A stretch of DNA of 64,000 nucleotides from NCBI GenBank assembly GCA_018296565.1, contig GCA_018296565.1_3935.1; one strand, 5' to 3'. Position 1 is the stretch's first letter. Every line of letters begins with the position of its first letter. The DNA comes from a phage. Made by a program: the position numbers and the translations under genes. The notes beneath the pieces are model-generated. The model worked only from the letters and a program-made list of their open reading frames with translations. It was not told the origin of the DNA and searched no databases. Shown here one piece after another: positions 7,920-64,000 of this stretch.

Positions 7920-8419
7920 TGGCTGAAGTTATCTCTATTTCAAATGCTACACGAGTGCATTCGTATAGAGGTGTTCTTATCATCACTGACAAATTATCTG
8001 TAGAGGCTGGCTCAAGGGTCAGCCTTTCAGGTTATGCAAGTGATGGTGGAACCTCTGACGTTTTCACTATTTGTAGGTTACTTGATGCACCAATGAGTGG
8101 AAAACCGTTTATTTCAGGAAATTGTAGTGAAATTGTTAAAATTCCATTTGACAGTTCATGCCTTTTGGGTGTAAAGTTATATAACTGCGAGAATAAACGT
8201 ATCAATGTTAATAGCATTGAAGCCGCTTTCATTACCCTCGACACTGCATTTCAATCTCCAATGACAGTTAATAAAGAAACAAACAGACTTGAGTACATTT
8301 TTTCACAAAATGATTACAAAGTACTTGTCAAAGGTAAAGTATATGATATGATTGTAAATGTGGTAGATGAATCTGGTAACCATTCAACAGTCCTTAAACA
8401 AAAAGTAAGGTTTAATTAA
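7919..8419 (+). CDS. Hypothetical protein (head module)
   Basis: 166 aa ORF, start overlaps portal stop; no recognisable motif. Confidence 0.45.
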   Translation: MAEVISISNATRVHSYRGVLIITDKLSVEAGSRVSLSGYASDGGTSDVFTICRLLDAPMSGKPFISGNCSEIVKIPFDSSCLLGVKLYNCENKRINVNSIEAAFITLDTAFQSPMTVNKETNRLEYIFSQNDYKVLVKGKVYDMIVNVVDESGNHSTVLKQKVRFN

Positions 8420-8751
8420 TGGGAACATTAACTATTGATGGTAAGAATAAAATCCTCGCCACGCTAACCCCAACGACTATTATTTTACACAATGTAGACC
8501 CAACGGCAGACCCTACAGCAAATAAGGTTACTCAGCCAGTGGCTATTTATTTTTCTGAACCGGATAATGGCTTAATTGCCTCAGAAGATACAGTTAATAT
8601 TACTGTTCCAGCTTCTGCAACGGTCTCACACTATAGCTTGTGGGATGCTAACGATAAATGCGTGGCAACTGGTGCTCTTAGCAAACCTCAATTCTTTACT
8701 GAAGAAGGTATCTATGTTATCTCTTCAGTCTCTGTAGATTTAAACAAATAG
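8419..8751 (+). CDS. Hypothetical protein (head module)
   Basis: 110 aa ORF, ATG overlaps upstream stop. Confidence 0.45.
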   Translation: MGTLTIDGKNKILATLTPTTIILHNVDPTADPTANKVTQPVAIYFSEPDNGLIASEDTVNITVPASATVSHYSLWDANDKCVATGALSKPQFFTEEGIYVISSVSVDLNK

Positions 8752-8762
8752 GGTGAGTAAAA

Positions 8763-10109
8763 ATGAGTTCGAATATCTTCAGACTTGCTGATAGATTATT
8801 CAACCAACCTTTACTAGCCACTGAATCATTAGCTCACTCAGCAGCAACTTATGTGAATAACAGATTGCTGGGTGATGTCCAAGCAGCAGTAAACTTTGAT
8901 AAACCCAAAGGTGAAGCAAGAAGTCTTTTAAAAGTAAAAGATGACATTGCTATTATCCCTATTATGGGTGGTTTAACCCATCGTATGACATTCATTGATG
9001 CAATGTGTACAGGTGGATTAAGCTCTTATGAAGGTTTGCGTAGAGGCTTTGACGAAGCTTTAGCAGATGAGTCAATCAAGACTATTGTTCTGCATATTGA
9101 TTCCGGTGGTGGTGAAGCTTCAGGTTGCTTTGAATTAGCACGTCACATTATGGCTTCAAGAGGCCAAAAGAAAATTATTGCTTATGTAGATGAGTTCGCT
9201 TGTTCCGCTGCATACGCTCTTGCATCTTCTGCTGAAGAAATTATTGCATCACCAGATGCAGATGTTGGTTCTATTGGTGTAATTATGGTTCATCAGGAAT
9301 TAACTAAGGCATTTGAAAAGAATGGCGTAACAATTAACGTCATCAAAGCTGGTGAGTTTAAAGGTATGGGTTCACCATTCCAAGCACTCTCAGAAGAAAG
9401 CAAAGAAAGACTTCAAAAGAGAATTAATGATACATACGCAACCTTTACAGGTTTTGTAGCCGAATCTCGTAATCTCTCTGAAGAAGCTGTAAAGAATACT
9501 GAGGCGAATGTTTATTCTGCTCAGGAAGCTCTTGAACTTGGTTTAATTAACTCAATCATGTCTCAAGATGATTTCTTAAATTACTTACAAGGTTCTGAAG
9601 AGGCTCCTGTAAGTTTAAACGTTAACAATTCAGGTGAAGAAATGACTGAACAAGAAAAGCAAGAACTAGAAGCTTTGCGTCTTCAGGTTGCTCAAATGAA
9701 AGCTAAAGAACAGGAAGCTGCTTTGTCAGATTTGACTAATAAGATTTCTGCTTCTGCTGAAGCTTTTGGATTTGATGCAAAAGAAGCTGCAACGACTATT
9801 TTAGGTGCTGGTCTTGATAACCCTCTGAGTGTTCTGTTTATGAATGCTATGGAAGGTGCTAACCAGAAACTTAATGAAACTATCGCGTCCCATGCTTCTG
9901 CAATGGAAGAAAAAGAATCAGAAATTACCAAGCTGAAAGAAACTGCTGGTGCTGTTCTTGAACATTCCAACGCTATGGAAGAAATGGGTAATGACGGCGA
10001 AGCTGATTTGGTTGAAGAAGAAAAAGAACCAGCTAAGAATGCTTCCGAAGACACCGCTGAACAACGCAAACTGGCTCTCCAGAATGCTCTAAAATCTCTT
10101 ATCAAATAA
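8763..10109 (+). CDS. Prohead protease (S49/ClpP-fold) fused to scaffold-like C-terminal domain
   Basis: N-terminal region resembles SppA/ClpP-type serine peptidases (IIPIMGG, VLHIDSGGGEASG, FACSAAYALA); C-terminal about 150 aa is Ala/Glu-rich coiled coil. Sits between portal and capsid genes. Confidence 0.7.
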   Translation: MSSNIFRLADRLFNQPLLATESLAHSAATYVNNRLLGDVQAAVNFDKPKGEARSLLKVKDDIAIIPIMGGLTHRMTFIDAMCTGGLSSYEGLRRGFDEALADESIKTIVLHIDSGGGEASGCFELARHIMASRGQKKIIAYVDEFACSAAYALASSAEEIIASPDADVGSIGVIMVHQELTKAFEKNGVTINVIKAGEFKGMGSPFQALSEESKERLQKRINDTYATFTGFVAESRNLSEEAVKNTEANVYSAQEALELGLINSIMSQDDFLNYLQGSEEAPVSLNVNNSGEEMTEQEKQELEALRLQVAQMKAKEQEAALSDLTNKISASAEAFGFDAKEAATTILGAGLDNPLSVLFMNAMEGANQKLNETIASHASAMEEKESEITKLKETAGAVLEHSNAMEEMGNDGEADLVEEEKEPAKNASEDTAEQRKLALQNALKSLIK

Positions 10110-16092: not shown

Positions 16093-24102
<8,010 letters not shown>

Positions 24103-36293: not shown

Positions 36294-38993
36294 TCAGTGA
36301 ACCTCAAGCCAACTCTTTCCAACCTTACCTGTACCAGTTACAAGTGTTTCTTTCTTAAGACCTAAGTTCTTAGAAGCTTGCCCGTAATACCAATCAGTAA
36401 CTGCTTTTACTTCTGCCGTCATACTCTCTGGACATTCCCAGCTAGTCTCATCGTGATATGCGCACAATAAGCGAGCACCTATAGCTGGTTTACGCCCATT
36501 TAGCTTCATCAACCCTTCGTCAATCATGCGACGACAAGCAAGGTTAATTGCCTCATTTTGAATCTGGGCCTCTGAACCCATCAAAAGGTAGTTCAACAGT
36601 TTGTGTGGAGATTTACACCACAACCAAGCTCCAGCAACCTTTACAAAACCCCCTTTAGAGATTGCAGCAGTCTTACCAAACACCTCTTCAAGTGCCTTTT
36701 TAGTTGCTTTGTAGTCAGCTTCCAAGTCATCTAACAGCTTCTTAATTTTAGGCAAACGTATAAAGTAAGTCTGTTTAGTCAGCGCACCTTCCTGAGTAGT
36801 CGCAGCTTTAATCGTCTTAGCAAACTTCTCATCACCTGCACCGAACAGCAGTGCATAGATACCATTCTTAGCTTTCTTACGACCTTTGCTAATCTCATGA
36901 AGAAGATTCTCATCCTGAGTAGCTCGACAAGTCAAGATGTCCTGCTCATCATTCAAGCTAAAGTAAATACTGTTCAGTGTATGTGCATCAGTCCCTGAAT
37001 AGACAACGTACAGGTCATTCTCAGAGTCATAGCGAAGGTACTTATCAATCTCTGGGTTGAGGTACTCATCAAAGTGTTTGCAGTAATAGCGTCCATCTTC
37101 TTGACGAATGAACTCAATTTCTTCTTTACCTTGCGTTACCGCTTTGGTGAAGTCTTTATCACCCATAAAGTTACAAAGTAGAACTAGCTGGGCTGAGTTC
37201 ATATCTACAGAGACAACGTTAGTACCTTCCTCACAAATCCACACTGCCCTCATTGGTTCCCCATAGACAGCAGCACCAGACGGTACGTTTACAATACCAT
37301 ATTGTGTCATACGTCCAGTTGAAGTACCAAACACCATTGCACCAGCACTAAGGCGACCATCAGGACGAATCTGGTTCAACCAACCTTTTTCATCATCCTT
37401 TGAGTTCTCAATAGTTCTGCGTCGGTGCATCAAAGTATAGTACTTAGCAATCTTCTGTCCAAGCTCACCTTCAATCGTATCATAAGATGATTCAGTAAGT
37501 TTTGGTGAAGTACGGATTAAGCAAGGCTCAAGCAAATCTGTGTACTTCTTCACAGACCAGTTATGCTCAATGTACTGTACACCTTCATGTTCAACATAGC
37601 TCAAACCACACCGCTCAACCATTTCCTGCCACTTAGGATGTTTTGTAATCATCTTTTTATTGTCTTTGAAACGACAAACTTTGACAGGGCGACCGTCTGA
37701 GTCTTTCTTGTAGTTCCAGTCATCTGGAATCCAACCAACTGATTTCAAGTAGTCTTTTACCACTGCTACCTGAGTCATACGAGAAACTTCAAACTCAATT
37801 GGTGTATATGGTGCATCAATCAATCCTGTGTAGCGACTTGACTCAAGTTCAAAGTGGTTAACAACGTGGCTGTTATAGTACTTCACAGTTTTGACTGTTT
37901 TTACTGGCTTCCAGTCTTTGCATTTCTTACCAATCTTTGCATTCAACTCATTGCAAATTGCACGAGCATCCTTCATTGCTACAAAGCCTTCCTTGTACTC
38001 TTCACCAGTTACAGAGTTGGTTGGTGTATAGCAATTTCTCTTTTCAATGTTAAAAATCTTTGTAGTTGGCTTACCAAATGGTTTGATTTCATAAGTCTGC
38101 ATCTCACCATTACGCACCTGCTGACGATACTTCGTCTTAGGGTACTTGGTAATTCTTTTCAGTCCATCTGCATGACCAAATGCTTCAACATACTCATTCC
38201 AAGCTTTTGCAAACTCTTCTCCAGTGACTTTACCTTTGGTCTTAATAGTTGGAGGTAGATGTGGTTCAACCTCTGAAGCAAGCTCATTAGTCAACTTGTC
38301 AAGTTCCTTTACATGGAACTCCATAAGCTCTTTATCAGCTTTCCAACCATTGATAGCCTGTTGACTCATCCAGAAAGATGTCTCTTTAGCTCTCATGTAA
38401 GTTTCATAAGTGTCTATGCCACACTTCTTAAGCTTGAGATACTCGTTATCAAGTGCCCGTTTAGTTTTGGCGTTAATACGGATATCTTCTACAACACGAG
38501 TGAAGATTTCTGCATTCCACACACCCCAGTGTTCAATCTCTGGTTTACGAACACCAACACGAGCACCCCATGCAGCCAAACCATGAGCACCTTTATAACC
38601 CTTTGGAGTTGGTCTATCCATCCACTGAACACGAGACTGGATAAGAGAATCCTGAAAGAAATTACTCCACGGTTTACACTTTGGATTATCAAAGTTCCAT
38701 AAATCAGGTGCAATGTGATTGAAAACCCACCAGTCATAACCGAGACCGTTATGGATGCAAAGACGTTTTGCCTTTAACGCAAACTCAATACCTTCACGTA
38801 AGCCACCCTTAATATACTTGGTATACTTGTGACCGAGGATAGGCTCATCTGTAAAGACCCATACAGGCGGCTCTTCATCGTCAGATTTATAGTCTGCGAA
38901 AGCCATTACGTGCACTTTAGTGAACTCAAGGAGTAAACCATCAGTTTCTGTATCACCAACTAAATGTAAGTTTTTAAAATCTACGTTTTCCAT
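36294..38993 (-). CDS. DNA polymerase, family A, with 3'-5' exonuclease domain
   Basis: Start taken at internal ATG (38993) with gaggga RBS. Exo I motif GDTETDGL at N-terminus; about 900 aa; adjacent to ligase and near T7-type primase-helicase. Confidence 0.85.
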   Translation of the reverse strand: MENVDFKNLHLVGDTETDGLLLEFTKVHVMAFADYKSDDEEPPVWVFTDEPILGHKYTKYIKGGLREGIEFALKAKRLCIHNGLGYDWWVFNHIAPDLWNFDNPKCKPWSNFFQDSLIQSRVQWMDRPTPKGYKGAHGLAAWGARVGVRKPEIEHWGVWNAEIFTRVVEDIRINAKTKRALDNEYLKLKKCGIDTYETYMRAKETSFWMSQQAINGWKADKELMEFHVKELDKLTNELASEVEPHLPPTIKTKGKVTGEEFAKAWNEYVEAFGHADGLKRITKYPKTKYRQQVRNGEMQTYEIKPFGKPTTKIFNIEKRNCYTPTNSVTGEEYKEGFVAMKDARAICNELNAKIGKKCKDWKPVKTVKTVKYYNSHVVNHFELESSRYTGLIDAPYTPIEFEVSRMTQVAVVKDYLKSVGWIPDDWNYKKDSDGRPVKVCRFKDNKKMITKHPKWQEMVERCGLSYVEHEGVQYIEHNWSVKKYTDLLEPCLIRTSPKLTESSYDTIEGELGQKIAKYYTLMHRRRTIENSKDDEKGWLNQIRPDGRLSAGAMVFGTSTGRMTQYGIVNVPSGAAVYGEPMRAVWICEEGTNVVSVDMNSAQLVLLCNFMGDKDFTKAVTQGKEEIEFIRQEDGRYYCKHFDEYLNPEIDKYLRYDSENDLYVVYSGTDAHTLNSIYFSLNDEQDILTCRATQDENLLHEISKGRKKAKNGIYALLFGAGDEKFAKTIKAATTQEGALTKQTYFIRLPKIKKLLDDLEADYKATKKALEEVFGKTAAISKGGFVKVAGAWLWCKSPHKLLNYLLMGSEAQIQNEAINLACRRMIDEGLMKLNGRKPAIGARLLCAYHDETSWECPESMTAEVKAVTDWYYGQASKNLGLKKETLVTGTGKVGKSWLEVH

Positions 38994-39187
38994 TTTTACT
39001 CCCTCTAAAATCATTAACCTCATACATTACTGCAAAAAATTATAAAAAGCAAGTTGACAATGCACTTGACAAGGTGTTAATCTTTGCGAAGTGGGTTTTT
39101 ACTTAAAAGGTTACTTAACAGTTTAACTATACAGATACTTTAAAACTCTTAAAAGATTATTTAATAGCTTTTAAAAAGCTTTAAAGT

Positions 39188-41288: not shown

Positions 41289-41489
41289 ATGAAGATGAGA
41301 GTAAAAGACAATTTTAAAGTTATTGACCACCGTTTAGTGGAACTCTCATCTCTTTCCAATGAGGTAATGATTGAACGTCTTAAGAGAGTTGAATCACGAA
41401 GGAAAGAGATTGCAGATGAAATTCATGAACTGGACAAGATTGAAAATGGATTGAAGGCAGAACTACAACGAAGAGGTGCTAATGTCTAA
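41289..41489 (+). CDS. Hypothetical coiled-coil protein
   Basis: 66 aa helical ORF; 3' end overlaps primase-helicase start. Confidence 0.4.
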   Translation: MKMRVKDNFKVIDHRLVELSSLSNEVMIERLKRVESRRKEIADEIHELDKIENGLKAELQRRGANV

Positions 41490-43467
41490 AGGTCGTAAAT
41501 TGAAAGAGGCTGGTCAGTTTGTTGGTCATTGCGCATGTCCACGTTGTGGTTCATCAGATGCTGGTTCAATCTATCATCATGACGATGGTTCTTATTCAAT
41601 GACTTGCTTTAGTTGTAACAAAGGTTTCCCAGAGTGGGATTTTGATAAAGGACAAATCGTGAGCACTTATTCTACTGGTTCAGACAATAAAAACCGTACT
41701 TTCCGTGGAATGGATTTAGACGATGTGAAAGAAAACCTTGAAGCAATGGACTTGAAAGACAGGAAGATTCCTGCAAAAGTTCTTGAGCGTTTGGGTATCA
41801 AGGTTGACATTGACAGTGATGGTGAAATTGACGCGCATTTCTACCCAACTTACAAACGCAATGAAGATGGCAAGCTAGAGCATGTTGGATACCGTGTTCG
41901 TCACCGTTACCCAGAAGACCATCCAAAAGAGCACCTACGAGGTAAGTTAAAAGACTTTTCTGGTGGTGTTGGAGACATTAAAGGTGAACTGGCAATGTTT
42001 GGTTCATGGATTGCTCCAGAAGGTGGGAATCGTCTGTTCATCTGGGAAGGTGAGATGGAATGTGCCACAGCAATCTATATGACTTCTTTGGCGATTAAAG
42101 ATAAGTCTCGTCGTAAGAATTACTGTCACGTATCTGTCCCATCAGGTGCAAACATTAAGTCTATCAAAGACAACTATCAGTACATCACATCATTTGATGA
42201 GATTTACTTGTGCTTTGATAACGATGAAGCAGGTGCTAAAGCTACCAAAGAGGCTGCTGGTATCTTACCTATTGAGAAGGTTCGCTTATTCCAGTATCCA
42301 GAAGGTGTAAAAGACCTTAACGAATGGTGGACAAAGTTTTATAAAGAGAAAGATACAGTTCTGGAAGGATTTAAACAGCGTATCTATAACGCACCTCGTT
42401 ACTGCCCTGCTGGTATCAAGAACTTTGCAGATGGTTTTGAGGCAATGAAGAATCGTGGTCAGATTCCATTGATACCTTTCCCAGAATCTTTCGGGGACTT
42501 GAACAGGCTAACTTACGGTGGTTACGGTTTAGGTGAGATTACAACTATTGCAGCACCATCTTCAGTAGGTAAGTCAGCTTACACTCGTGAGATGATTTAT
42601 TCAGCTTGGAAAGAAACTGATTATAATATCGGTGTAATTCCTGTAGAAGATACCTATGAAGAGTTGATGGAGATGCTCTGTGCAATCCACCTAAGCAAAC
42701 AGATTTCTGAGATTCCTTATGATGAACGAGATTGGGATGAACTAAAAGGGGCGCACGCCGAGCTTTCAAAAGGTCGCCGCATTCATATCGTTGACCATCA
42801 AGGGGCAATTGACCAAGATAACCTGCTGGAGTTTGTTGACTATCTTGTTAATAGTTTAGACTGTAAGATTATTATTCTTGACCCTATTACGTTGGCTCTG
42901 TCACGTTCTGATACGGATGAAGAGGAAGTGTTATCTGAACTACTGCGTCGTTGCAAACGCTACCAGTATGCACAGGTGAACGTCTGTCACGTTCGTAAGA
43001 GTGCAGGCGGTCAGAAAGCTAACTCTGAAGGCGGAGACATCTCTGAAGAGGATATTAAGGGTTCTGGTGCGTATTTCCAGATTTCCATGAACAACATTCT
43101 ACTAATGCGTAACAAGGTTGACCCAGACCCTGTTAAGAAAAACTTGACAAAAATCAAGTTAACTAAGTGTCGTCGTCATGGTAAGTCAACAGGTATTGCT
43201 GGCCATACTTGGTACAATCCAGACACAGGACGTCTTATCAAAGCTTCTGGATGTGGTGTTGACATTGATGGTGCAGCAGAAAATATTCGTCAACAGTTTG
43301 GTATTGGTGAAGCTGAAGACCATTATGACGACTCTTTACCTCATTATGAAGATGAAGTGTTTGACCGTGAGACTGGTGAAGTCTATACTGAAGAACAGCG
43401 TCAAAGCTCAACGATTCCACCTGTATTAAGTGAGGATGCAGATGACTGCCCGTTTGAAACTGAGTGA
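41482..43467 (+). CDS. DNA primase-helicase (T7 gp4-like)
   Basis: Track ORF starts at a GTG at 41476; ATG at 41482 follows an aagaggtg RBS. N-terminal zinc ribbon CACPRCGSSD...CFSCNKGF, C-terminal helicase Walker A AAPSSVGKSAYT. Confidence 0.85.
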   Translation: MSKGRKLKEAGQFVGHCACPRCGSSDAGSIYHHDDGSYSMTCFSCNKGFPEWDFDKGQIVSTYSTGSDNKNRTFRGMDLDDVKENLEAMDLKDRKIPAKVLERLGIKVDIDSDGEIDAHFYPTYKRNEDGKLEHVGYRVRHRYPEDHPKEHLRGKLKDFSGGVGDIKGELAMFGSWIAPEGGNRLFIWEGEMECATAIYMTSLAIKDKSRRKNYCHVSVPSGANIKSIKDNYQYITSFDEIYLCFDNDEAGAKATKEAAGILPIEKVRLFQYPEGVKDLNEWWTKFYKEKDTVLEGFKQRIYNAPRYCPAGIKNFADGFEAMKNRGQIPLIPFPESFGDLNRLTYGGYGLGEITTIAAPSSVGKSAYTREMIYSAWKETDYNIGVIPVEDTYEELMEMLCAIHLSKQISEIPYDERDWDELKGAHAELSKGRRIHIVDHQGAIDQDNLLEFVDYLVNSLDCKIIILDPITLALSRSDTDEEEVLSELLRRCKRYQYAQVNVCHVRKSAGGQKANSEGGDISEEDIKGSGAYFQISMNNILLMRNKVDPDPVKKNLTKIKLTKCRRHGKSTGIAGHTWYNPDTGRLIKASGCGVDIDGAAENIRQQFGIGEAEDHYDDSLPHYEDEVFDRETGEVYTEEQRQSSTIPPVLSEDADDCPFETE

Positions 43468-43941: not shown

Positions 43942-44799
43942 ATGTCTAAAGTTGTTAAAATGAAAGCTCCGGTAGAGAAGTACAATGGTACTGAACGTCA
44001 AACTCTGCGTTACCTTCTGAAAGATGTCTGGTTTTATTACCTGAACACTTCACCACGTCCGGGAAAAGGTAAATCTATTGATAAGAAATTCCCAGGAAAA
44101 GACTGTAACTACAGTGTTTCAATTCTGGCAGAAGATGGTAACAAGCTGTTTAAAGAGTTTACTAAGTCTAAGAAAAACCCAGAAGGTTGGGATAAAGTTA
44201 CTACTGAAGCAGTTGATGCAGATGACTTCGAAGAGAAGTTTGGTTGCAAACCACCATTTGAAGCAGACACTTACTACATCTTGAAAGTAAGTCGTGCAGC
44301 AGCTTATAAAGATGGTGCTGTGTGGACAGCTAAACAGTCATTCCCTGTAATGCTGATTGAAGAAGTAAATGGTAAGCGTGTAGCTGTTAAACAGCCGATG
44401 AAGAAAATCAAAGCTCAAGCATCTGACAAACATGAAGATGACAAGAACTATGATGTAATTCATCCAGATATTGCAGTTGGTAACGGTTCTTTTGGTAGTG
44501 TGATTCTTTCTACTCACTTCTACACTTTTGAGAACAATGTTCTGACAAAACCTATTCAGGAACAGTTTATCATTGATACCCTTGTACCTTACACTGGTGG
44601 TAACGGTGCTAACGGCGAACCTGAACTGGATGAAGATGAACTGGCTATGCTTGGTCTTGATGGTGTTGAAGATAATGGTGAAATCACTGAAGAAGACGCA
44701 ACAGACCACAAACCTTCGAATAATTCTGATGATGGTGACGATGAAGACTTGCCAGACCCAGATGACGAAGAAGATGAAGACTTCGATACAGAAGACTAA
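43942..44799 (+). CDS. Single-stranded DNA-binding protein (T7 gp2.5-like, putative)
   Basis: 285 aa with extremely acidic C-terminal tail (DDGDDEDLPDPDDEEDEDFDTED), characteristic of gp2.5-type SSBs; in replication block. Confidence 0.55.
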   Translation: MSKVVKMKAPVEKYNGTERQTLRYLLKDVWFYYLNTSPRPGKGKSIDKKFPGKDCNYSVSILAEDGNKLFKEFTKSKKNPEGWDKVTTEAVDADDFEEKFGCKPPFEADTYYILKVSRAAAYKDGAVWTAKQSFPVMLIEEVNGKRVAVKQPMKKIKAQASDKHEDDKNYDVIHPDIAVGNGSFGSVILSTHFYTFENNVLTKPIQEQFIIDTLVPYTGGNGANGEPELDEDELAMLGLDGVEDNGEITEEDATDHKPSNNSDDGDDEDLPDPDDEEDEDFDTED

Positions 44800-52174: not shown

Positions 52175-54319
52175 ATGAACAAAGTACAGATTATTAAAAA
52201 GAATGGCTCACTCGAAGAACCTGATATCAAAAAAGTTTTAGCAGCAGTCACAAAGTCAGCTAATAGGGTTGGGTATAAAGAACTCCCACCAGATGTTACT
52301 CAAGCTCTTGAGTCAGCATTTATGAGGATTCTGGTAAAATCTACTAAACAGAATAATTTACTAATTTCGGTAAACGATATTCACAGTATTGTTGAAGGTG
52401 CTTTGGCAGAGGTCAATCACGAGATTTATGAGTCTTACTCAACATACAGAAATTACCGTAAAGAGGTTGCTCAAAATTGGGATGAACTTTACCAAAAGAC
52501 TAGAGACACACTCTTCTTAGGTGACCGTGAAAATGCTAACTTTGACAGCAGTTTAATTTCTACGAAAGGTTCAATTATCCGTGGTTACCTGACTAAAGAA
52601 ATCTTTAAACAGTATCATCTAACACCAGAGGAACTTGAAGCCATTGAGAAAGGCTTTATCTATATCCACGATTTGAGAGACCTGATTTTTGGTGGTATTA
52701 ACTGTTGCCTGTTTGACATTGGTAAAGTACTAAAAGGCGGCTTTGAAATGTCCGGCATTGAGTACTGTGAACCTAAATCTGTACTGTCAGCGTTGCAGGT
52801 TATTGGTGACGTAGTACTTTCAGCAACTGCACAGCAATTTGGTGGTTTTACTTTAGCAGAGATTGATAAGGTACTTGTACCGTATGCTAAGAAGTCTCTA
52901 CGCTATCATGCTGAGAAAGCATCATCTTATGGTATTCCTAAAGAGCATTACCACAATTATGTAATGGAGCAGTTACAAATTGAACTGACTCAAGGTTTTC
53001 AGTCACTTGAGATGAAACTAAATACCGTACCTTGTAGCCGTGGTGATTTTGCATTCACAACTTTAACATTTGGTTTACTTGACTCAGATATGTCTAATGA
53101 GGATAATCGACTACAATACATGATTGCAAGTACTCTCCTAGATGTTCGTATGAATGGACAAGGCAAGAGCAAAAAACCTGTTGTATTCCCTAAACTGGTT
53201 TATATTTATGACCAGAAGAGACATGATGAAAATATCTGTCAAGGTCACCTGTACAGTAAAGCTATTGAGTGTTGCTCTAAAGCAATGTACCCAGATTTCT
53301 TAAGTGTGTCTGGTCATGGTGCTGTAGCAGAGGCTTTTGAGCGTTCTGGTAAGGTAATTTCACCGATGGGTTGCAGAGCCTTTTTATCTCCATATCTTAA
53401 TGAGGGTGGAGAAGAGTTCTACGTTGGTCGTGCTAACATTGGTGCTGTATCTTTGAACTTACCAATGATTTACCAGTATTCTAAAGAGAATGGCTTAGAT
53501 TTCTGGAAAGAGCTTGATAAGTACCTAGAGATGATTCGTAGTTTCCATAAGAAACGCTACGAAATGATTGCTAATATGCCAGCAAGCTCTAACCCTCTTG
53601 CATTCACACAAGGTGGTCTGTACAAAGGAACTAAGAAACCTACTGACAAGGTTGGTTGGGATATTGTGAAGTCCTTCACAGCTTCTTTTGGTGTTACTGC
53701 GCTTGATGAGTTGTCTGTTCTTGCTGAAGGTAAACGACTGCATGAAGTTGGAAGCTATAGTTTTGCATATGATGTTCTGGCATACATTAACATGAAAACC
53801 GAAGAGTTTAAAAATGAAGATGGCTTCTTATATGCCGTCTATGGTACTCCAGCAGAATCACTTTGCGGAACTCAACTAAAACAGTTCAGAGATATGTTTG
53901 GCGTTATCAAAGGCGTTTCTGACAAGGAATACTTTACAAACAGTTTCCATATGAATGTTGCAGCAGACATCTCACCATTTGAGAAGCAGGACTTAGAAGA
54001 ACCATTCTTCCATATCTGTGGAGGCGGTAGAATCCAGTATGTAAGAGTAGCTAACCCAGAAAACTTATCAGCACTTAAGAGCTGTATTACAAGAGGGATG
54101 TTGAAAGGTTTCTATCAGGGACTTAACTTTGACTTAGCAATCTGTGAGCATTGTGGTAACAGACCAAAATCAGATGTTGAAGAGTGTGAAGTTTGTCACT
54201 CACATGATATCTCTGTGATTAACAGGGTGTGTGGGTATCTTGGATGGACTAAGATTAAAGGTGAATCCCGAATGAACGATGCAAAAATCGCTGAGATTCG
54301 TGACAGAGTTTCTATGTAA
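52175..54319 (+). CDS. nrdD: Anaerobic ribonucleoside-triphosphate reductase (class III)
   Basis: 714 aa; C-terminal zinc ribbon CEHCGN...CEVCHSHD and glycyl-radical motif RVCGYLG. Confidence 0.85.
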   Translation: MNKVQIIKKNGSLEEPDIKKVLAAVTKSANRVGYKELPPDVTQALESAFMRILVKSTKQNNLLISVNDIHSIVEGALAEVNHEIYESYSTYRNYRKEVAQNWDELYQKTRDTLFLGDRENANFDSSLISTKGSIIRGYLTKEIFKQYHLTPEELEAIEKGFIYIHDLRDLIFGGINCCLFDIGKVLKGGFEMSGIEYCEPKSVLSALQVIGDVVLSATAQQFGGFTLAEIDKVLVPYAKKSLRYHAEKASSYGIPKEHYHNYVMEQLQIELTQGFQSLEMKLNTVPCSRGDFAFTTLTFGLLDSDMSNEDNRLQYMIASTLLDVRMNGQGKSKKPVVFPKLVYIYDQKRHDENICQGHLYSKAIECCSKAMYPDFLSVSGHGAVAEAFERSGKVISPMGCRAFLSPYLNEGGEEFYVGRANIGAVSLNLPMIYQYSKENGLDFWKELDKYLEMIRSFHKKRYEMIANMPASSNPLAFTQGGLYKGTKKPTDKVGWDIVKSFTASFGVTALDELSVLAEGKRLHEVGSYSFAYDVLAYINMKTEEFKNEDGFLYAVYGTPAESLCGTQLKQFRDMFGVIKGVSDKEYFTNSFHMNVAADISPFEKQDLEEPFFHICGGGRIQYVRVANPENLSALKSCITRGMLKGFYQGLNFDLAICEHCGNRPKSDVEECEVCHSHDISVINRVCGYLGWTKIKGESRMNDAKIAEIRDRVSM

Positions 54320-57365: not shown

Positions 57366-57636
57366 AGAAAAGTGGGAGATTTTATCATTAGTCAGTGAAG
57401 GTGGTAATGGTTGTGAAATGTACATGATACGTGGTCATGTCCCAGAGCCAATTGCACTTGAGATGGTAAATAATTATACAGATGGTTCTTACAAAGACTT
57501 AGGAGAACCAACTGTCAAACAGCAATGGGTAAAGCCTGTGCCAGATAGTACAGGAAACTGTAGTGTACTTTATCACGTTGTAGACCCTGTGAAATGCAAG
57601 TCTGCAATGGCAGTAACTAACGTAACTTTTGATTGA
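57358..57636 (+). CDS. Hypothetical protein
   Basis: 92 aa ORF, overlapping start with HNH gene stop. Confidence 0.45.
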   Translation: MAKEKWEILSLVSEGGNGCEMYMIRGHVPEPIALEMVNNYTDGSYKDLGEPTVKQQWVKPVPDSTGNCSVLYHVVDPVKCKSAMAVTNVTFD

Positions 57637-57647
57637 GAGAGAAAATT

Positions 57648-58529
57648 ATGAAAACATCTATACGTGTTACAGTTCATTCACCAACTAAAGGAACTCATGA
57701 AGAAGAGTTTAACATCATCCAATTTCCTTCTGGTGAGATTGGTGGACACTTTTCACCAGAGTTTGTTGATTTTACTGCTTATGCTGCATCATCCATCAAC
57801 AATGTGATTATGATTGTAAAAGGTTATGATAAAGACACATTGTTTGCTGTAGCACTTGCTAAAGAAGCAATTGATGATTTAATTCCTCATGATTATGCTT
57901 TAAAGACTGTCATCTTTTACTACTTACCAAATGCACGATATGACCGTCACATGTTTAAAGGCGATGCAGCAGCTTTGAAGGTTTTTGCTAAACAGGTTAA
58001 TGCAATGGGGTTTGGTGCAGTCTGTGCAGTTGACCCTCACAGTTACGTTCCAGATAACCTGTTTAACTGCTTCCAGAGTATTCCTCAAAAGGAGATTGCA
58101 GTCCACTATGCAAATGACCCACTGGTTGATTACTTAGTGGCCCCAGATGCAGGTGCTGCTAAGAAGGTTGCAGAAACCGCTAAAGAGGTGGATAAACCAT
58201 ATATCACAATGTCTAAAGTACGCAACCTCAAGACTGGTGAAATCACTGGTATGCGAATCCTTGACGATGTTGATTTGACAGATAAAACCGTCATGATTCT
58301 GGATGATATTTGTGATGGAGGACGAACCTTCATAGAAGCAGCTAAACATCTTCGTGAAGCAGGTGCAAAACGAGTGGAACTCTATGTAACACATGGTATC
58401 TTCTCTAAAGATGTTGAAAACCTTCTTGACAATGGTATTGACCATATCTACACTACAAACTCTTTAGGGGAAGCTAAAGACCGTGGCTTAACACATTATA
58501 GCCAAGTTACTGTAGCAAACCTTGATTAA
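57648..58529 (+). CDS. prs: Ribose-phosphate pyrophosphokinase (PRPP synthetase)
   Basis: Track ORF starts at a TTG at 57633; ATG at 57648 follows a gagaga RBS. PRPP-binding motif VMILDDICDGGRTF. Confidence 0.7.
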   Translation: MKTSIRVTVHSPTKGTHEEEFNIIQFPSGEIGGHFSPEFVDFTAYAASSINNVIMIVKGYDKDTLFAVALAKEAIDDLIPHDYALKTVIFYYLPNARYDRHMFKGDAAALKVFAKQVNAMGFGAVCAVDPHSYVPDNLFNCFQSIPQKEIAVHYANDPLVDYLVAPDAGAAKKVAETAKEVDKPYITMSKVRNLKTGEITGMRILDDVDLTDKTVMILDDICDGGRTFIEAAKHLREAGAKRVELYVTHGIFSKDVENLLDNGIDHIYTTNSLGEAKDRGLTHYSQVTVANLD

Positions 58530-58574: not shown

Positions 58575-60356
58575 ATGACTAAATCACTTTATGCAGTACC
58601 AGCAGGTTTAAATGCAGATGCTTACAAATCTGGTCATGTTTACCAGTATCCTAGCGCAACAGAGTACTTGATGTTCAACCTGACACCACGTAGTGATAAA
58701 TGGTTTAACAGCCCTTTAGCAATTGACGGTGTAGTGGCTTTTGGTATTCAACGTTTTGTTAAAGATTACTTGATAGACCACTGGAATGCCACTTTCTTTG
58801 AACGTGATAAAAAAGAAGCAATTGACGAAATCTTAGAAGTCATGCATGGTGTTCTTGGTAAAGATGCTATCGGTCGAGAGCATTGGGAAGCACTTCACGA
58901 CTTAGGTTATCTACCAGTTGAAGTCTACGCTGTAGAAGAAGGCACAGTTGTCCCTATGCGTGTCCCAATGATTGTTTTCCAGAACACTGTTTCAGGTTTC
59001 CATTGGGTAGCAGGTTATCTGGAAGATGCTTTCTCTGCTGAGATTTGGAAGGCTTGTACCATTGCAACTATTGCATTGCACTACAAACGTATCTGTAAGA
59101 GGTGGGCTGACCTTACTTGTGATAACGACTTGCATTTGCCTTATCAGTGCCATGACTTTGCTATGCGTGGTATGTCCGGCTTTACTGATGACGCATTTAA
59201 TGCTGTAGGCCACTTGACCAGCTTTAAAGGAACTGATAGCTTCCCTGCCGTATATACAGCTAAACGCATCTACGGACAGTCTTACCCAGTCTCTGATATT
59301 GGTAGCTCTGTACCAGCCACTGAGCACTCTGTAATGTGTGCAAACATTGCTTGGGAAGGTGGTAACGAATTGATTGAAGAAGAAAGACGCTTTAAAGGTG
59401 AATTACAAACCTTCCGTCGTTTCTTAACAGAAACTTACCCAACGGGTATTGCAAGTATTGTTTCAGATACTTATAACTTCTGGAGAACTGTATCAGTGAT
59501 ACTGCCAGAACTCCGTAAAGAGATTATGGAACGTGACGGCAAGCTGGTAATTCGTCCTGACTCTGGAGACCCTGTGCATATTGTCACAGGTTATAAAGCA
59601 ATCCACTTAGAATGTGCTAAGAAGGCTTATTATGAACATCTTAGCAAGCTGGAAGCTAGTGATACAATGCTGAAATCTGTTCTGAACATGAAGCTTGAAA
59701 ACATCAACTATGGTATTGCTGGATGGCTACTGTCAGAAGGCTACGAAATGGTTGTTGACCGAGAAGACTTTGAAGTTGCTGATACAGTACTGCTGAAGAA
59801 TGCTTATATGGTTGGTTCTGCAAACGTTGTAACACGTCCTGTAGCAGAGATTGATGGAGCTATTAAGACCCTGTATAACATCTTCGGAGGGACTATCAAC
59901 TCCAAAGGTTTTAAAGTACTGGATGAGCACATCGGACTTATTTATGGTGACTCTATCACGTTGGAACGTGCAAACGAAATATTGAAGCGTTTGTATGAAA
60001 TGGGTTTTGCAAGCTCTAACGTAGTGTTTGGTGTAGGCTCTTACACTTACCAGTACATGACTCGTGACACCTTTGCATTTGCTGTCAAAGCAACTCTTGC
60101 AAGCATTGGTGGTAAGGAGATTATGCTTGCAAAAGACCCTAAAACAGATAGTGGTGTGAAGAAGTCTGCCTTTGGTGGTGTAGCGCCTATGTGGGATGGT
60201 GATAAATTGAAAGCTGTAGATGGCTATGGATTCCAGAGCTTTGCAGATGCACTTGAACATCCAGCTTGTGCTTTACGTTTAGTCTTTAGCGACTCTGAGC
60301 AGTTTGGCTACACAACTCTTGGCGATATTCGAAATAATATTGACAAGCAGCTTTAA
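58575..60356 (+). CDS. nadV: Nicotinamide phosphoribosyltransferase (Nampt/NadV)
   Basis: 593 aa; matches remembered Nampt blocks: DAYKSGH, HDFAMRGMS...KGTDS, SIVSDTYNFW, IRPDSGDP. Confidence 0.8.
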   Translation: MTKSLYAVPAGLNADAYKSGHVYQYPSATEYLMFNLTPRSDKWFNSPLAIDGVVAFGIQRFVKDYLIDHWNATFFERDKKEAIDEILEVMHGVLGKDAIGREHWEALHDLGYLPVEVYAVEEGTVVPMRVPMIVFQNTVSGFHWVAGYLEDAFSAEIWKACTIATIALHYKRICKRWADLTCDNDLHLPYQCHDFAMRGMSGFTDDAFNAVGHLTSFKGTDSFPAVYTAKRIYGQSYPVSDIGSSVPATEHSVMCANIAWEGGNELIEEERRFKGELQTFRRFLTETYPTGIASIVSDTYNFWRTVSVILPELRKEIMERDGKLVIRPDSGDPVHIVTGYKAIHLECAKKAYYEHLSKLEASDTMLKSVLNMKLENINYGIAGWLLSEGYEMVVDREDFEVADTVLLKNAYMVGSANVVTRPVAEIDGAIKTLYNIFGGTINSKGFKVLDEHIGLIYGDSITLERANEILKRLYEMGFASSNVVFGVGSYTYQYMTRDTFAFAVKATLASIGGKEIMLAKDPKTDSGVKKSAFGGVAPMWDGDKLKAVDGYGFQSFADALEHPACALRLVFSDSEQFGYTTLGDIRNNIDKQL

Positions 60357-60370
60357 AAGTATATGATAAG

Positions 60371-60392
60371 AGGCTCCTACGGGAGCCTTTTT
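60371..60392 (+). terminator. Rho-independent terminator after nampt
   Basis: Hairpin aggctcc-tacg-ggagcct followed by TTTT. Confidence 0.6.
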
Positions 60393-60409
60393 AATTTCTG
60401 GAGAAGACT

Positions 60410-60745
60410 ATGAAAATCAAAGAAATGAACATCAACATTATCTTAGAAGAACGTTGGGAGAACATCAAGAAGCCTGAAGATGGCCATAAGTTCCTCAACA
60501 AAATTTTAGTAGCAGCTAAAGAAGAACTGACTGGAAAGGTTGCAGCAGCAATCACAATAAAGGTTTGTGTAAAAGGTCTTCCACAACATCACCAGTTTGC
60601 ACTTGACGAGTTTAAAGAAAGCTTCTACAATCCAAACAAACAGATGCTTGAAAGTAACTTTGCAGTATCTACAAGTATCGTTCATGACAGAAGCTTTATC
60701 CTTTACAAAAATATGAGAGGTGAGTCATGCAAGCATATTGGATAG
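60410..60745 (+). CDS. Hypothetical protein
   Basis: 111 aa ORF, ATG start. Confidence 0.45.
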   Translation: MKIKEMNINIILEERWENIKKPEDGHKFLNKILVAAKEELTGKVAAAITIKVCVKGLPQHHQFALDEFKESFYNPNKQMLESNFAVSTSIVHDRSFILYKNMRGESCKHIG

Positions 60746-60903
60746 AAATTTTACTGTCACTTGGTAGTGTAGCAGTGTTCGTTTACCTTCTTTGCAAGTA
60801 CTATGCAGAACACAAAAAATGTGACTTCTGTAATGGGGAAGGTTATACAAGAGCAGGTTGTTGCCCTATGTGTGGCGGTTCTGGTAAAATGTTTAATAAG
60901 TGA
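60728..60903 (+). CDS. Small membrane protein with zinc-ribbon (unannotated ORF, 58 aa)
   Basis: ATG with agaggtgag RBS; N-terminal TM (ILLSLGSVAVFVYLL) then CDFCNGEG...CPMCGGSG; below the track cutoff. Confidence 0.35.
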
Positions 60904-60931
60904 TTTAACAGTAAACTAAGAGGAAAGTATT

Positions 60932-63298
60932 ATGCGCATGGTAAATGACCACGCAGAAGTGATTAAGAGTTCAACTTCTTTAGAGACGTCTCAAGCACAG
61001 ATTACAATGACACCTGAGATGTTCAGCCTTTTGAGTTCTGGTGTATACACCTTTAAAGAAAGGGCAGTGATTCGTGAACTGTCATGTAACGCAGTGGATG
61101 CTCAGAAAGAAGCTGGAAAAGAGAACATCCCATTCCATGTGCATTTACCTACTCGTTTTGAGCCTTACTTCGAAGTTCGTGATTTTGGAACTGGATTGAC
61201 TCATGATAAAGTTATGAGTCTGTACCTAAACTATGGAGCTTCTACGAAGAACGACTCTAATGACTACATTGGTGCAATGGGTATCGGCTCAAAGTCACCA
61301 TTTGCAATTGCTCAGTCATTCACAGTATCTAGTTATGTTGACGGTGTTGTTAATAAGTACTCTGTTTATCTTGAGAATGGTATCCCTCAAGTAACTAAGC
61401 TGACAACTAACCCAACAAAAGAACCTAATGGTTTAGCTGTACGTGTGGCAGTTGCTGACCACCGTATCTCAAAGTTCTTTGAAGAAGCTGGGAATGTGTA
61501 CTCATACTTCACTGTAAAACCAGAAAGTAATATTGAGTACAACGATGTATTAGCAGATATGAACGTCATTGCCCGTGAAGAAGGTGTTTATGATGCCATG
61601 ATTCATAAGCACAGCTGGCGTTCTAGTGATAACAGGACAGAGTTTAATGTGGTGATGGGTAACATTGCCTACCCTGTTAATATGGAAGCATTACTTGGCG
61701 ATGATTTCTTCAAAGTATTGCCAGAGTTTTTCCGTAGGAGCGTAGACCTTGTAAACATCTACATGCCTATTGGTTCAGTTGCTATTGCAGCTTCTCGTGA
61801 AGCATTGCAGATGAATGACACGACAAAAAATGTTATCATTGAGGCTACTAAAAAGATAACTGAAGCCATTACAAAGGATGTTATCAAAAAGATTAACAAT
61901 CAGCCCACACTCATGGATGCTGCACAGGCTTATGCTGAGTTGCGTTTGAACTCACGAGAAATGTTTAATGCTGTGTGTCCAAAGCTAGAGTGGGGAGGCG
62001 TTAAGCTTGATTCTCTGGAAGAAGAGTTGCTAAACATTCGTCGCGGGATTATCTACGCAGAAGACGGCTCAGTCATTTATGAGCGTGACGGTAAAGGTAA
62101 TATTAAGGTTGATAGGAACGGAAACAACATCCCTAAAGTAGATTACCTTTATGACCCAGTTGCTTATGTCAAGTTCAACTCTTTAGAGAGTAAGATTCGT
62201 GCAACAGCACTTTCCTACACTCAAGAGGCAAGTATGTTCAATATCTTTGGTGCAATGCGTAAAAGCCAAATTGAACAGTTTTTGTTCGTGATTAATGACC
62301 GTCGCAATAAAAATGGCACTGAGAAGACTGTAGGACGAAATCAAATCTTGCGTGGTGCATGTCGAGACTACGCTAACGAGTCAGGCCTGTTCCACAGATA
62401 CAATGGTATTGTGTTTGTATTCTCGACTGAAAAAGAGTTAGATGATTTAATCAATCTACACAAACTTGATAAAAGCTTGTTAAAGATTGTGAAAATGTCT
62501 GATAAGGAGCATCATTATCAGCGTAAAGAGGCTGTGAGAGGTGTTGTAAAACTATGGAAAGCTGTTCCAGCAGAATCTGTAGCTTCATACAAAGAGGTGT
62601 CAGAAGACTTAGACACAATTGAAGAACCTCAGCTTTATATTAAGGCAGTTGGTGACACAGTTGATGGTAGATGTTTTTGCTCATCTCCAGAAGATGTAGC
62701 TAAGTCAGTTGCTAATGTTATTGGAAAGACAGTTTATGTTTTCCGAAAAGCAAATTGGAAAAAGATACCAGAAGACTGGATTGAAGTAGATGAGAAGCTC
62801 TTGAACGACAGCTTAACTGATGTTCATTGGATTAATCATAACAGGTATATGACACGCATCTACATGAATGGTGTTCTTGACCTTACAAGTAGCTGGATTA
62901 TTGCCAGAAACTTTACATTCAATAACAGGAAGATTTCTCGTGGCTATTGCTATTCACGAGACACAAACAAAACTATCTTCTTAGAAGGCAATGAAGACGC
63001 TGTTGAGGCAATGTTTGGTAAAATCCAATACGTTGCTGCACCGTTTGCATACACTTACACTATTAGTAGATTGCAAACTTTGAAAGACTGCCTTGACAAC
63101 GATACAAAGCTGTACAAGAAAATTAAGAAAGCTGGTGACCGTATGGTCATTAAGGTGACAAACTACCTTTCAAAAAGAAAACAAGAAAACTTCTTGCTTT
63201 CTCATTTAGATTGGAATAAAGTGTCACCCATCGAAGTGAGTAAGTTCTTAGGCTTTGATGTGAAGTGTGTTCCAGAAGGGACTACAATTTACGATTAA
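60932..63298 (+). CDS. rIIA: rIIA-like protein
   Basis: 788 aa; N-terminal region matches remembered T4 rIIA blocks (RAVIRELSCNAVDA, VRDFGTGL, NDYIGAMGIGSKSPF), a GHKL ATPase-like fold. Confidence 0.75.
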   Translation: MRMVNDHAEVIKSSTSLETSQAQITMTPEMFSLLSSGVYTFKERAVIRELSCNAVDAQKEAGKENIPFHVHLPTRFEPYFEVRDFGTGLTHDKVMSLYLNYGASTKNDSNDYIGAMGIGSKSPFAIAQSFTVSSYVDGVVNKYSVYLENGIPQVTKLTTNPTKEPNGLAVRVAVADHRISKFFEEAGNVYSYFTVKPESNIEYNDVLADMNVIAREEGVYDAMIHKHSWRSSDNRTEFNVVMGNIAYPVNMEALLGDDFFKVLPEFFRRSVDLVNIYMPIGSVAIAASREALQMNDTTKNVIIEATKKITEAITKDVIKKINNQPTLMDAAQAYAELRLNSREMFNAVCPKLEWGGVKLDSLEEELLNIRRGIIYAEDGSVIYERDGKGNIKVDRNGNNIPKVDYLYDPVAYVKFNSLESKIRATALSYTQEASMFNIFGAMRKSQIEQFLFVINDRRNKNGTEKTVGRNQILRGACRDYANESGLFHRYNGIVFVFSTEKELDDLINLHKLDKSLLKIVKMSDKEHHYQRKEAVRGVVKLWKAVPAESVASYKEVSEDLDTIEEPQLYIKAVGDTVDGRCFCSSPEDVAKSVANVIGKTVYVFRKANWKKIPEDWIEVDEKLLNDSLTDVHWINHNRYMTRIYMNGVLDLTSSWIIARNFTFNNRKISRGYCYSRDTNKTIFLEGNEDAVEAMFGKIQYVAAPFAYTYTISRLQTLKDCLDNDTKLYKKIKKAGDRMVIKVTNYLSKRKQENFLLSHLDWNKVSPIEVSKFLGFDVKCVPEGTTIYD

Positions 63299-63304
63299 AG
63301 TGTT

Positions 63305-63334
63305 TGACAAGGGGCTTTTAAGCCCCTTAGAATA
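63305..63334 (+). promoter_or_regulatory. sigma70-like promoter TTGACA-N18-TAGAAT with palindromic spacer, between rIIA and rIIB
   Basis: gtgtTTGACAaggggcttttaagcccctTAGAATagcc; the spacer is an inverted repeat aggggc/gcccct. Confidence 0.45.
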
Positions 63335-63377
63335 GCCTTACAAAATGATTTATTAACTAACAAGAGAGAGTAATAAG

Positions 63378-64000
63378 ATGACTACTAAAACTAAAGCACA
63401 GATTGACGCAGAAATTTACGAACTGGTTAAAGAAGGTAAGCTGACTAAAACAGCTATTGCACAGAAGTTCAATACTTCAACCCGTTCAGTTGGTCGTGCT
63501 GTAGAGCGTCATGAAGCAACCTTAAAAGGTAAGAAGAAGGTGACTTCTACACCAGCTAAGAAGACCTTAAAGCAAGTTGCTAAGTCAGTTAAAAAGAAAG
63601 CTGGCAAACCAGTTGAAAAGGTTGTTAAAGAGGCTGTACAGAAAGCTCCAGTAAATAAACTGCATGAAGCTATGCAGAAAGATGACAAGATTGAGTACAT
63701 GATTACTGGTGATTCTGTAATTATGACTTATGGTTCAGAATCTGAAATTGTTGAGTCTACTCATCCGAACTATCAAGAGATTGTAGTTCATGTTGTGAAA
63801 GGTGAGTCCAAGAAAGCATTTGAACTGATGAACATTCGTAAGTCTATCGAAAACTTCACTCAGGGTGCTATCACAATCAAAGGCGACAAGCTATTCTACG
63901 GTGCTGTTGAGATGCGTTCTACTCTGGTTGACCGTATTCTTCACATGATGAAAACTGGCGATAAAGGTTTTGAACGACTTGTAATGTTCTTCGAAAAACT
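63378..64000 (+). CDS. rIIB: rIIB-like protein (3' end outside window)
   Basis: Open to the window edge; region NYQEIVVHVV...KGDKLFYGAVEMRSTLVDRILHMMKTGD parallels remembered T4 rIIB (LFYQNIELRSGLVDRILDSMEKGE); directly downstream of rIIA. Confidence 0.7.
   Translation, partial: MTTKTKAQIDAEIYELVKEGKLTKTAIAQKFNTSTRSVGRAVERHEATLKGKKKVTSTPAKKTLKQVAKSVKKKAGKPVEKVVKEAVQKAPVNKLHEAMQKDDKIEYMITGDSVIMTYGSESEIVESTHPNYQEIVVHVVKGESKKAFELMNIRKSIENFTQGAITIKGDKLFYGAVEMRSTLVDRILHMMKTGDKGFERLVMFFEK

Follow-up and report, generated by a model that had tools for sequence, protein, structure and literature searches.

Two adjoining genes at the end of a 64,000-nucleotide (nt) stretch of phage DNA (contig GCA_018296565.1_3935.1 of GenBank assembly GCA_018296565.1; the whole stretch is referred to as the window) raise the question of whether they are counterparts of rIIA and rIIB of phage T4 and, if so, what they do for the phage that carries them. 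A first-pass annotation, made from the sequence alone, had given them these names. The results presented here make it very probable that the two genes are the rIIA–rIIB pair of a Felix O1-like phage and that they have a counter-defense role. The pair is already known: it was annotated in 2010, and genetics have been published on near-identical orthologues. The two genes are co-oriented, with a spacer of 79 nt between the rIIA stop and the rIIB start, and comprise the following parts:

60932..63298, + strand: rIIA gene, complete, 788 amino acids (aa) plus stop (open reading frame (ORF) list, phrog_612, T4 rIIA BLASTP)
61013..61906, + strand: predicted GHKL (Bergerat-fold) ATPase domain with transducer-like second domain, rIIA residues ~28–325
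61907..63295, + strand: lineage-specific C-terminal half of rIIA, residues ~326–788
63378..64000, + strand: rIIB gene, 5' part, 207 of ~369 codons, cut at the window end (translation, PHROGs, T4 rIIB BLASTP)
63393..63530, + strand: predicted three-helix helix-turn-helix (HTH) domain, rIIB residues 6–51
63537..63644, + strand: lysine-rich linker, predicted disordered, rIIB residues 54–89 (predicted local distance difference test (pLDDT) score <50 in the P0134 model)
63657..63998, + strand: start of the conserved rIIB core, residues 94–207, aligning with T4 rIIB ~100–181; remainder beyond the window

We compared both ORFs with profiles and with the T4 proteins, and found that the proposed identity holds for each, with homology well above chance level; failure of the HMM searches, which the first-pass annotation had named as grounds for refutation, did not occur. 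Residues 1–770 of rIIA match phrog_612, 'RIIA lysis inhibitor' (E 2.1e-189), and T4 rIIA aligns with the protein at 32% identity over 307 positions (BLASTP, E 5e-37). The rIIB fragment matches the profiles phrog_609 (E 5.5e-31) and phrog_3803 (E 1.4e-15), and is 30% identical to T4 rIIB (BLASTP, E 6e-18). For a full-length relative, RIIB of vB_EcoM_E9, which is 97% identical to the fragment, the identity to T4 rIIB is 43% over 215 residues (E 3e-60). The rIIA ATG is preceded at a distance of 5 nt by the Shine-Dalgarno-like AAGAGGAAAG (60918–60927), and the rIIB ATG at 63378 likewise has a Shine-Dalgarno-like sequence upstream. Full-length rIIB orthologues have 368–373 codons, so that the first-pass annotation requires correction on one point, the truncation of rIIB by the window end. 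In the rII region, the opposite strand contains only ORFs of ≤63 aa, and no Rfam family was found. The two genes are not a hallmark of T4-like phages only: by tblastn, rIIA is present in 2,926 of 50,697 phage records, and the matches include N4-like podophages, Vequintavirus and phages of Streptomyces, Caulobacter and Vibrio.

The counter-defense role is well supported by published experiments on orthologues, and these agree with the earlier suggestion that the rII pair determines interaction with exclusion or defense systems. In the Felixounavirus phage Bas63, deletion of either g84 or g85, the rIIA and rIIB orthologues, reduced plating on cells with QatABCD by 10^4–10^5-fold, plating was restored by complementation, and the two genes acted as co-essential partners (PhageMaP preprint, 10.1101/2024.10.10.617714). 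The rII deletion experiment that the first-pass annotation had suggested is in essence this one. In addition, a CRISPRi-ART study found that knockdown of RIIA or RIIB lowered plating on cells with lambda RexAB in five phages (T4, MM02, EdH4, SUSP1 and N4), and that the same knockdowns were neutral without Rex (PMC11879866). RIIB of phage T6 is toxic when expressed alone and is the trigger sensed by a CARD/gasdermin defense system (10.1101/2023.05.28.542683). One figure in this literature needs correction: PhageMaP gives '>80% homology' of g84/g85 to T4 RIIA/B, and the BLASTP identities measured here are 32% (306 residues) and 36% (322 residues), respectively.

We next consider what the rIIA protein is. 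By predicted fold, rIIA has an ATPase domain of the GHKL type, in which the motifs for nucleotide binding and catalysis are all intact, followed by a transducer-like domain; this assignment was based on alignment motifs, NCBIfam matches and a fold search. In an alignment of 53 homologues, the N-box residues E49, N53 and D56, the G1-box residues D84 and G86, the G2-box residues G114, G117, G119 and K121, and the pair R289-E290 are invariant, and G88 is near-invariant. The AlphaFold model is confident (mean pLDDT 87.5). The Pfam search returned only HATPase_c at a sub-threshold level (E 0.12), and a PDB sequence search with rIIA gave no match. Conservation of residues ~326–788 is confined to Ounavirinae-like homologues. 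The same architecture, an N-terminal GHKL ATPase followed by a variable C-terminal region, was described for rIIA by Iyer et al. (2021; PMC7824862).

As judged from alignments and from a model of the orthologue P0134 (95% identical to the window fragment), three parts follow one another in rIIB: an HTH domain, a flexible linker rich in lysine, and a conserved core in which Cys, His and Asp residues are invariant. The linker region is strongly basic, with 16 Lys within residues 46–100, and T4 rIIB has a 19-residue gap opposite it. Alignment occupancy of the core is ~0.99 from residue 121 onward. Its invariant residues (N211, K241, R270, C281, G284-L285-H286, Y292, P308, D310, K322, R324 and Y328) lie at 211–328, past the window end at codon 207, and are present in P0134. 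This orthologue carries the precomputed Pfam family PF26926, and our own Pfam scan gave no family over the core; Foldseek found no significant match for the core among solved structures in the PDB. In a profile search of 1.84 billion representatives, the rIIB family comprised 9,136 clusters at 50% identity, and the matches listed were strong family members only, with no remote relatives. Iyer et al. treated rIIB as a transcription-factor-like HTH protein (PMC7824862). No transmembrane helix was predicted in rIIA or in the rIIB fragment.

Taken together with the published genetics, these architectures are consistent with the following mechanism. The two products are very probably early proteins that act together, dispensable on defense-free hosts and needed for growth on cells with certain abortive-infection systems. 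Here, rIIA would use ATP to work as a clamp or chaperone, partnered by rIIB, and the two may prevent or remodel an infection-specific signal, probably a nucleoprotein intermediate, that activates the defense sensor. They would not plug a membrane channel, and any association with the membrane would be peripheral, for example via the basic rIIB linker. That RexA binds DNA (PMC11077077) is in keeping with a trigger linked to nucleic acids.

Several points weigh against this mechanism or against carrying the counter-defense role over to the present phage. In classical T4 work, both rII proteins were found in membrane fractions, from which the label 'membrane integrity protector' arose. Most of the top-scoring members of the rIIB family start at profile position ~65 and are without HTH and linker, and the HTH therefore cannot be essential to the basic activity of the family; from these alignments, the HTH head is an optional accessory, found in T4 and Ounavirinae. 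RexA mutants lose exclusion whether their DNA binding is enhanced or abolished (PMC11077077), which obscures how DNA binding would relate to triggering. The literature consulted yielded no demonstration of ATPase activity, of a rIIA–rIIB complex or of DNA binding by the rII proteins, and no report on RexAB sensitivity of a Felixounavirus rII mutant. Finally, the Qat result comes from one relative and from a preprint, and would apply to this phage by analogy.

The serious rival is that rIIA and rIIB work at the inner membrane, where they would oppose RexB, and possibly QatB, or stabilize the energized membrane downstream of sensing. RexAB depolarizes the membrane and rII counteracts this (PMC11879866; 10.1101/2025.11.20.689424), the PhageMaP authors propose the same membrane logic for QatB, and the rII proteins of Bas63 are annotated as 'membrane integrity protector' in databases. 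The locus itself is compatible with such a role, in that acidic phospholipids are possible ligands of the lysine-rich linker in rIIB, and in every member of Ounavirinae examined the gene immediately before rIIA codes for a small transmembrane protein with a zinc finger. However, no transmembrane helix is predicted in either rIIA or the rIIB fragment, rIIA shares its fold with soluble clamps and chaperones driven by ATP, rIIB carries an HTH of the DNA-binding type, and depolarization by QatB is a hypothesis rather than a result of the preprint (10.1101/2024.10.10.617714). We regard this explanation as possible but not as probable. The names 'RIIA/RIIB lysis inhibitor' in PHROG and GenBank suggest another role, in which the pair sets holin/endolysin timing, and in relatives an i-spanin gene lies ~3 kb downstream. 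According to Paddison and co-workers in 1998, the rapid-lysis phenotype of T4 rII mutants is reportedly an indirect effect of prophage-encoded functions. Moreover, rII knockdown in five phages had no effect on Rex-free hosts (PMC11879866) and the Bas63 rII deletions are viable (10.1101/2024.10.10.617714), which makes a role in lysis timing highly improbable; 'lysis inhibitor' is an inherited annotation name and not a tested function.

Two further readings give rIIB a catalytic role. In one, which applies to the rII family in general and not specifically to this phage, the rII pair would be a nucleic-acid-directed machine and not a membrane protector, with rIIA as an active GHKL clamp and rIIB as an HTH-tethered enzyme, and would erase or mask the infection signal that RexA and QatABCD detect; the rIIB core with its invariant Cys-His-Asp would then be a catalytic domain, either a very divergent one resembling ADP-ribosyltransferases or one of another kind. 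This reading, which would explain both the toxicity of RIIB alone and the triggering of CARD/gasdermin defense, appears unlikely. In the other, to which we give a quite low probability, the C-terminal core, mostly beyond the window, would be a divergent ADP-ribosyltransferase-like or other catalytic domain that modifies a host or defense component, with rIIA as its ATP-dependent regulator. The mechanism that we favor remains an ATP-driven rIIA acting with rIIB on the signal that activates the defense sensor. The motif and fold results (the GHKL site of rIIA; the HTH, basic linker and Cys/His/Asp core of rIIB) give predictions testable by point mutation.

The surroundings of the rII pair are also conserved. 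The gene order PRPP (phosphoribosyl pyrophosphate) synthetase, nicotinamide phosphoribosyltransferase (Nampt), two small ORFs, rIIA and rIIB is found in E9, Bas63 and SUSP1 as well. The relevant features are as follows:

57633–58529, + strand: PRPP-synthetase-like gene, matching Bas63 g79 by position and annotation
58575–60356, + strand: nicotinamide phosphoribosyltransferase gene, matching Bas63 g80 by position and annotation
60727–60903, + strand: 58-aa protein (phrog_3931) with a transmembrane helix at its N-terminus and two CxxCxGxG motifs of the DnaJ zinc-finger type
63302..63333, + strand: sigma-70-like TTGACA-N18-TAGAAT between rIIA and rIIB (promoter scan, 11/12 consensus), with a G+C-rich hairpin (GGGGCTT / AAGCCCC) between its two hexamers

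In Bas63, g79 and g80 are named as co-essential counters of the Sir2-HerA defense in the PhageMaP preprint (10.1101/2024.10.10.617714). Their counterparts adjoin the rII genes in the window, and its last 6 kb therefore constitute a counter-defense gene cluster. The 58-aa ORF lies directly upstream of rIIA, overlaps the end of the ORF at 60410–60745 and is kept at the same position in E9, Bas63 (as a 'putative membrane protein') and SUSP1. Its product is a possible membrane partner for the two rII proteins; the PhageMaP preprint, in the text consulted, names only g84 and g85 as counters of QatABCD (10.1101/2024.10.10.617714).

The element at 63302–63333 occurs once in the window, and its hairpin has an invariant stem and a variable loop among the window, E9 and Bas63. 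One possibility is that the element unites a hairpin that attenuates rIIA transcripts with a putative rIIB promoter. As an intrinsic terminator, the hairpin is not convincing, with no T-run after it and a fold z-score of –1.76. A promoter-like site at 60905–60933 was discarded as the promoter of rIIA, since the second hexamer of the site runs into the start codon of that gene. Separately, a promoter-like site at 60340–60367 is directly followed by a terminator-like hairpin at 60368–60391, which lies past the Nampt gene.

The remaining question is what kind of phage carries this locus. On nucleotide comparison, the window belongs to a Felix O1-like myophage of the genus Felixounavirus (Ounavirinae, Andersonviridae). 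The megablast queries covered positions 1–25000, 39001–64000 and 60400–64000, and showed 94–98% nucleotide identity at 97–100% coverage to many Felixounavirus records. More than 200 phage records, from Escherichia, Salmonella, Shigella and Citrobacter phages, matched at near-full coverage. The closest matches are E. coli phages, namely EcoM2 (98.3%, positions 1–25000) and KhF1 (95.7%, rII region). In the taxonomy, 101 taxa stand directly under Felixounavirus. The genes that bear on the mosaic composition of the genome are as follows:

36294–39023, – strand: family A DNA polymerase (Pfam DNA_pol_A, E 5e-15)
41476–43467: Toprim + DnaB_C primase-helicase (phrog_239, E 2e-184)
43942–44799, + strand: putative single-stranded DNA-binding protein (SSB), 285 aa, between the primase-helicase and exonuclease genes (phrog_3877, unknown function)
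Capsid protein of the lambda gpE family (Phage_cap_E, E 2e-78)

The first-pass annotation had described a mosaic of T4-style nucleotide metabolism, a T7-type replisome and a lambda-like head with contractile tail, and most of this was recovered. The family A DNA polymerase and the gp4-like primase-helicase were confirmed by the matches listed above; the polymerase lies in a minus-strand block together with thymidylate synthase, DHFR and ATP-dependent ligase. The T4-style nucleotide metabolism is likewise present (thymidylate synthase, DHFR, deoxynucleoside monophosphate kinase, NrdA/B and NrdD/G), and further genes encode an exonuclease, a MazG-like protein, and the PRPP-synthetase-like protein and nicotinamide phosphoribosyltransferase described above. 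As a side observation, nrdD is uninterrupted at 52175–54319 (+ strand), whereas the annotation of Bas63 splits nrdD into two joined parts, and a gene for a homing endonuclease lies within its span (6631–9517). The head and tail assignment was correct in part: a gpE-family capsid, an S49 protease and, after the capsid and protease genes, sheath, tape measure, baseplate and tail fibre genes are encoded, but the head module is not simply lambda-like because its portal is of the Mu type and its large terminase of the T4 type.

The gp2.5-like SSB could not be substantiated. The candidate ORF at 43942–44799 matched T7 gp2.5 with a best E value of only 0.019 (BLASTP), and searches of Pfam, NCBIfam and PDB sequences gave no match. 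Features in favor are its gene position and a strongly acidic C-terminal tail that ends in EDEDFDTED, and the product is plausibly a phage SSB. Apart from these genes, 20 tRNA genes with small ORFs between them were observed at 2–4389 (+ strand), as is typical for Felix O1-like phages.

This combination of genes is largely present as had been claimed, but its placement is not outstanding. The genome of Felix O1 contains RIIAB genes together with a polymerase and a primase/helicase closest to those of T7-like podoviruses (Whichard et al. 2010; PMC3185647). Because the same combination is described there, the mosaic is neither unusual nor unplaced; it is the defining Felix O1 layout, published in 2010, of a well-populated genus. 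As an instance, the window is one more Felixounavirus and matters little. The system is of broader value, in that Felix O1-like phages are small, grow on K-12 and have deletion libraries, and are a convenient second rII system beside T4, ~70 years after the work of Benzer.

Comparison with known systems places the rII pair at several distances. The most distant likeness is that of rIIA to the GHKL modules of Hsp90/TRAP1, MORC, MutL and type II topoisomerases, with sequence identities of 11–15%. This likeness is at the superfamily level and is not family membership: rIIA is without the Toprim, CW, endonuclease and Hsp90 C-terminal dimerization domains of these relatives, and among the fold-search matches listed its C-terminal 460 residues had no match of their own.

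T4, a member of Straboviridae, is closer in function but differs in genome type, the window phage having a family A polymerase. The N-terminal GHKL regions of the two rIIA proteins can be aligned (32%, ~300 residues), whereas their C-terminal halves cannot; in rIIB, of which the T4 protein has 312 aa, the HTH and core are homologous. In T4, the rII genes are likewise adjacent, co-oriented, active in counter-defense and dispensable on naive hosts, and the defense tested was RexAB for T4 and QatABCD for the Felixounavirus orthologue.

Within Ounavirinae, phiSUSP1 (KT454805) belongs to another genus (Suspvirus or Mooglevirus, depending on the taxonomy release) and has the same local gene order, with identities of 63% for full-length rIIA and 73% for the rIIB fragment; it differs in a homing endonuclease between the PRPP synthetase and Nampt genes. 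Felix O1, the type phage, from Salmonella, has a genome map that opens at the rIIA homologue and, by its published description, shares RIIAB, the T7-like polymerase and primase/helicase, the Nrd genes, PRPP synthetase and nicotinamide phosphoribosyltransferase (PMC3185647). The system nearest to the window with experiments is Bas63 (Escherichia phage JohannRWettstein, MZ501086), which is of the same genus and has the same gene order and protein lengths, with its rII genes at 16381–19933 and one extra small ORF upstream of the locus (bas63_0081) that is absent from the window. Its gp84 (bas63_0084) is 97% identical to rIIA (765 of 788 residues, 23 substitutions) and its gp85 (bas63_0085) is 91% identical to the rIIB fragment, and a functional difference between the two rII pairs is neither known nor expected.

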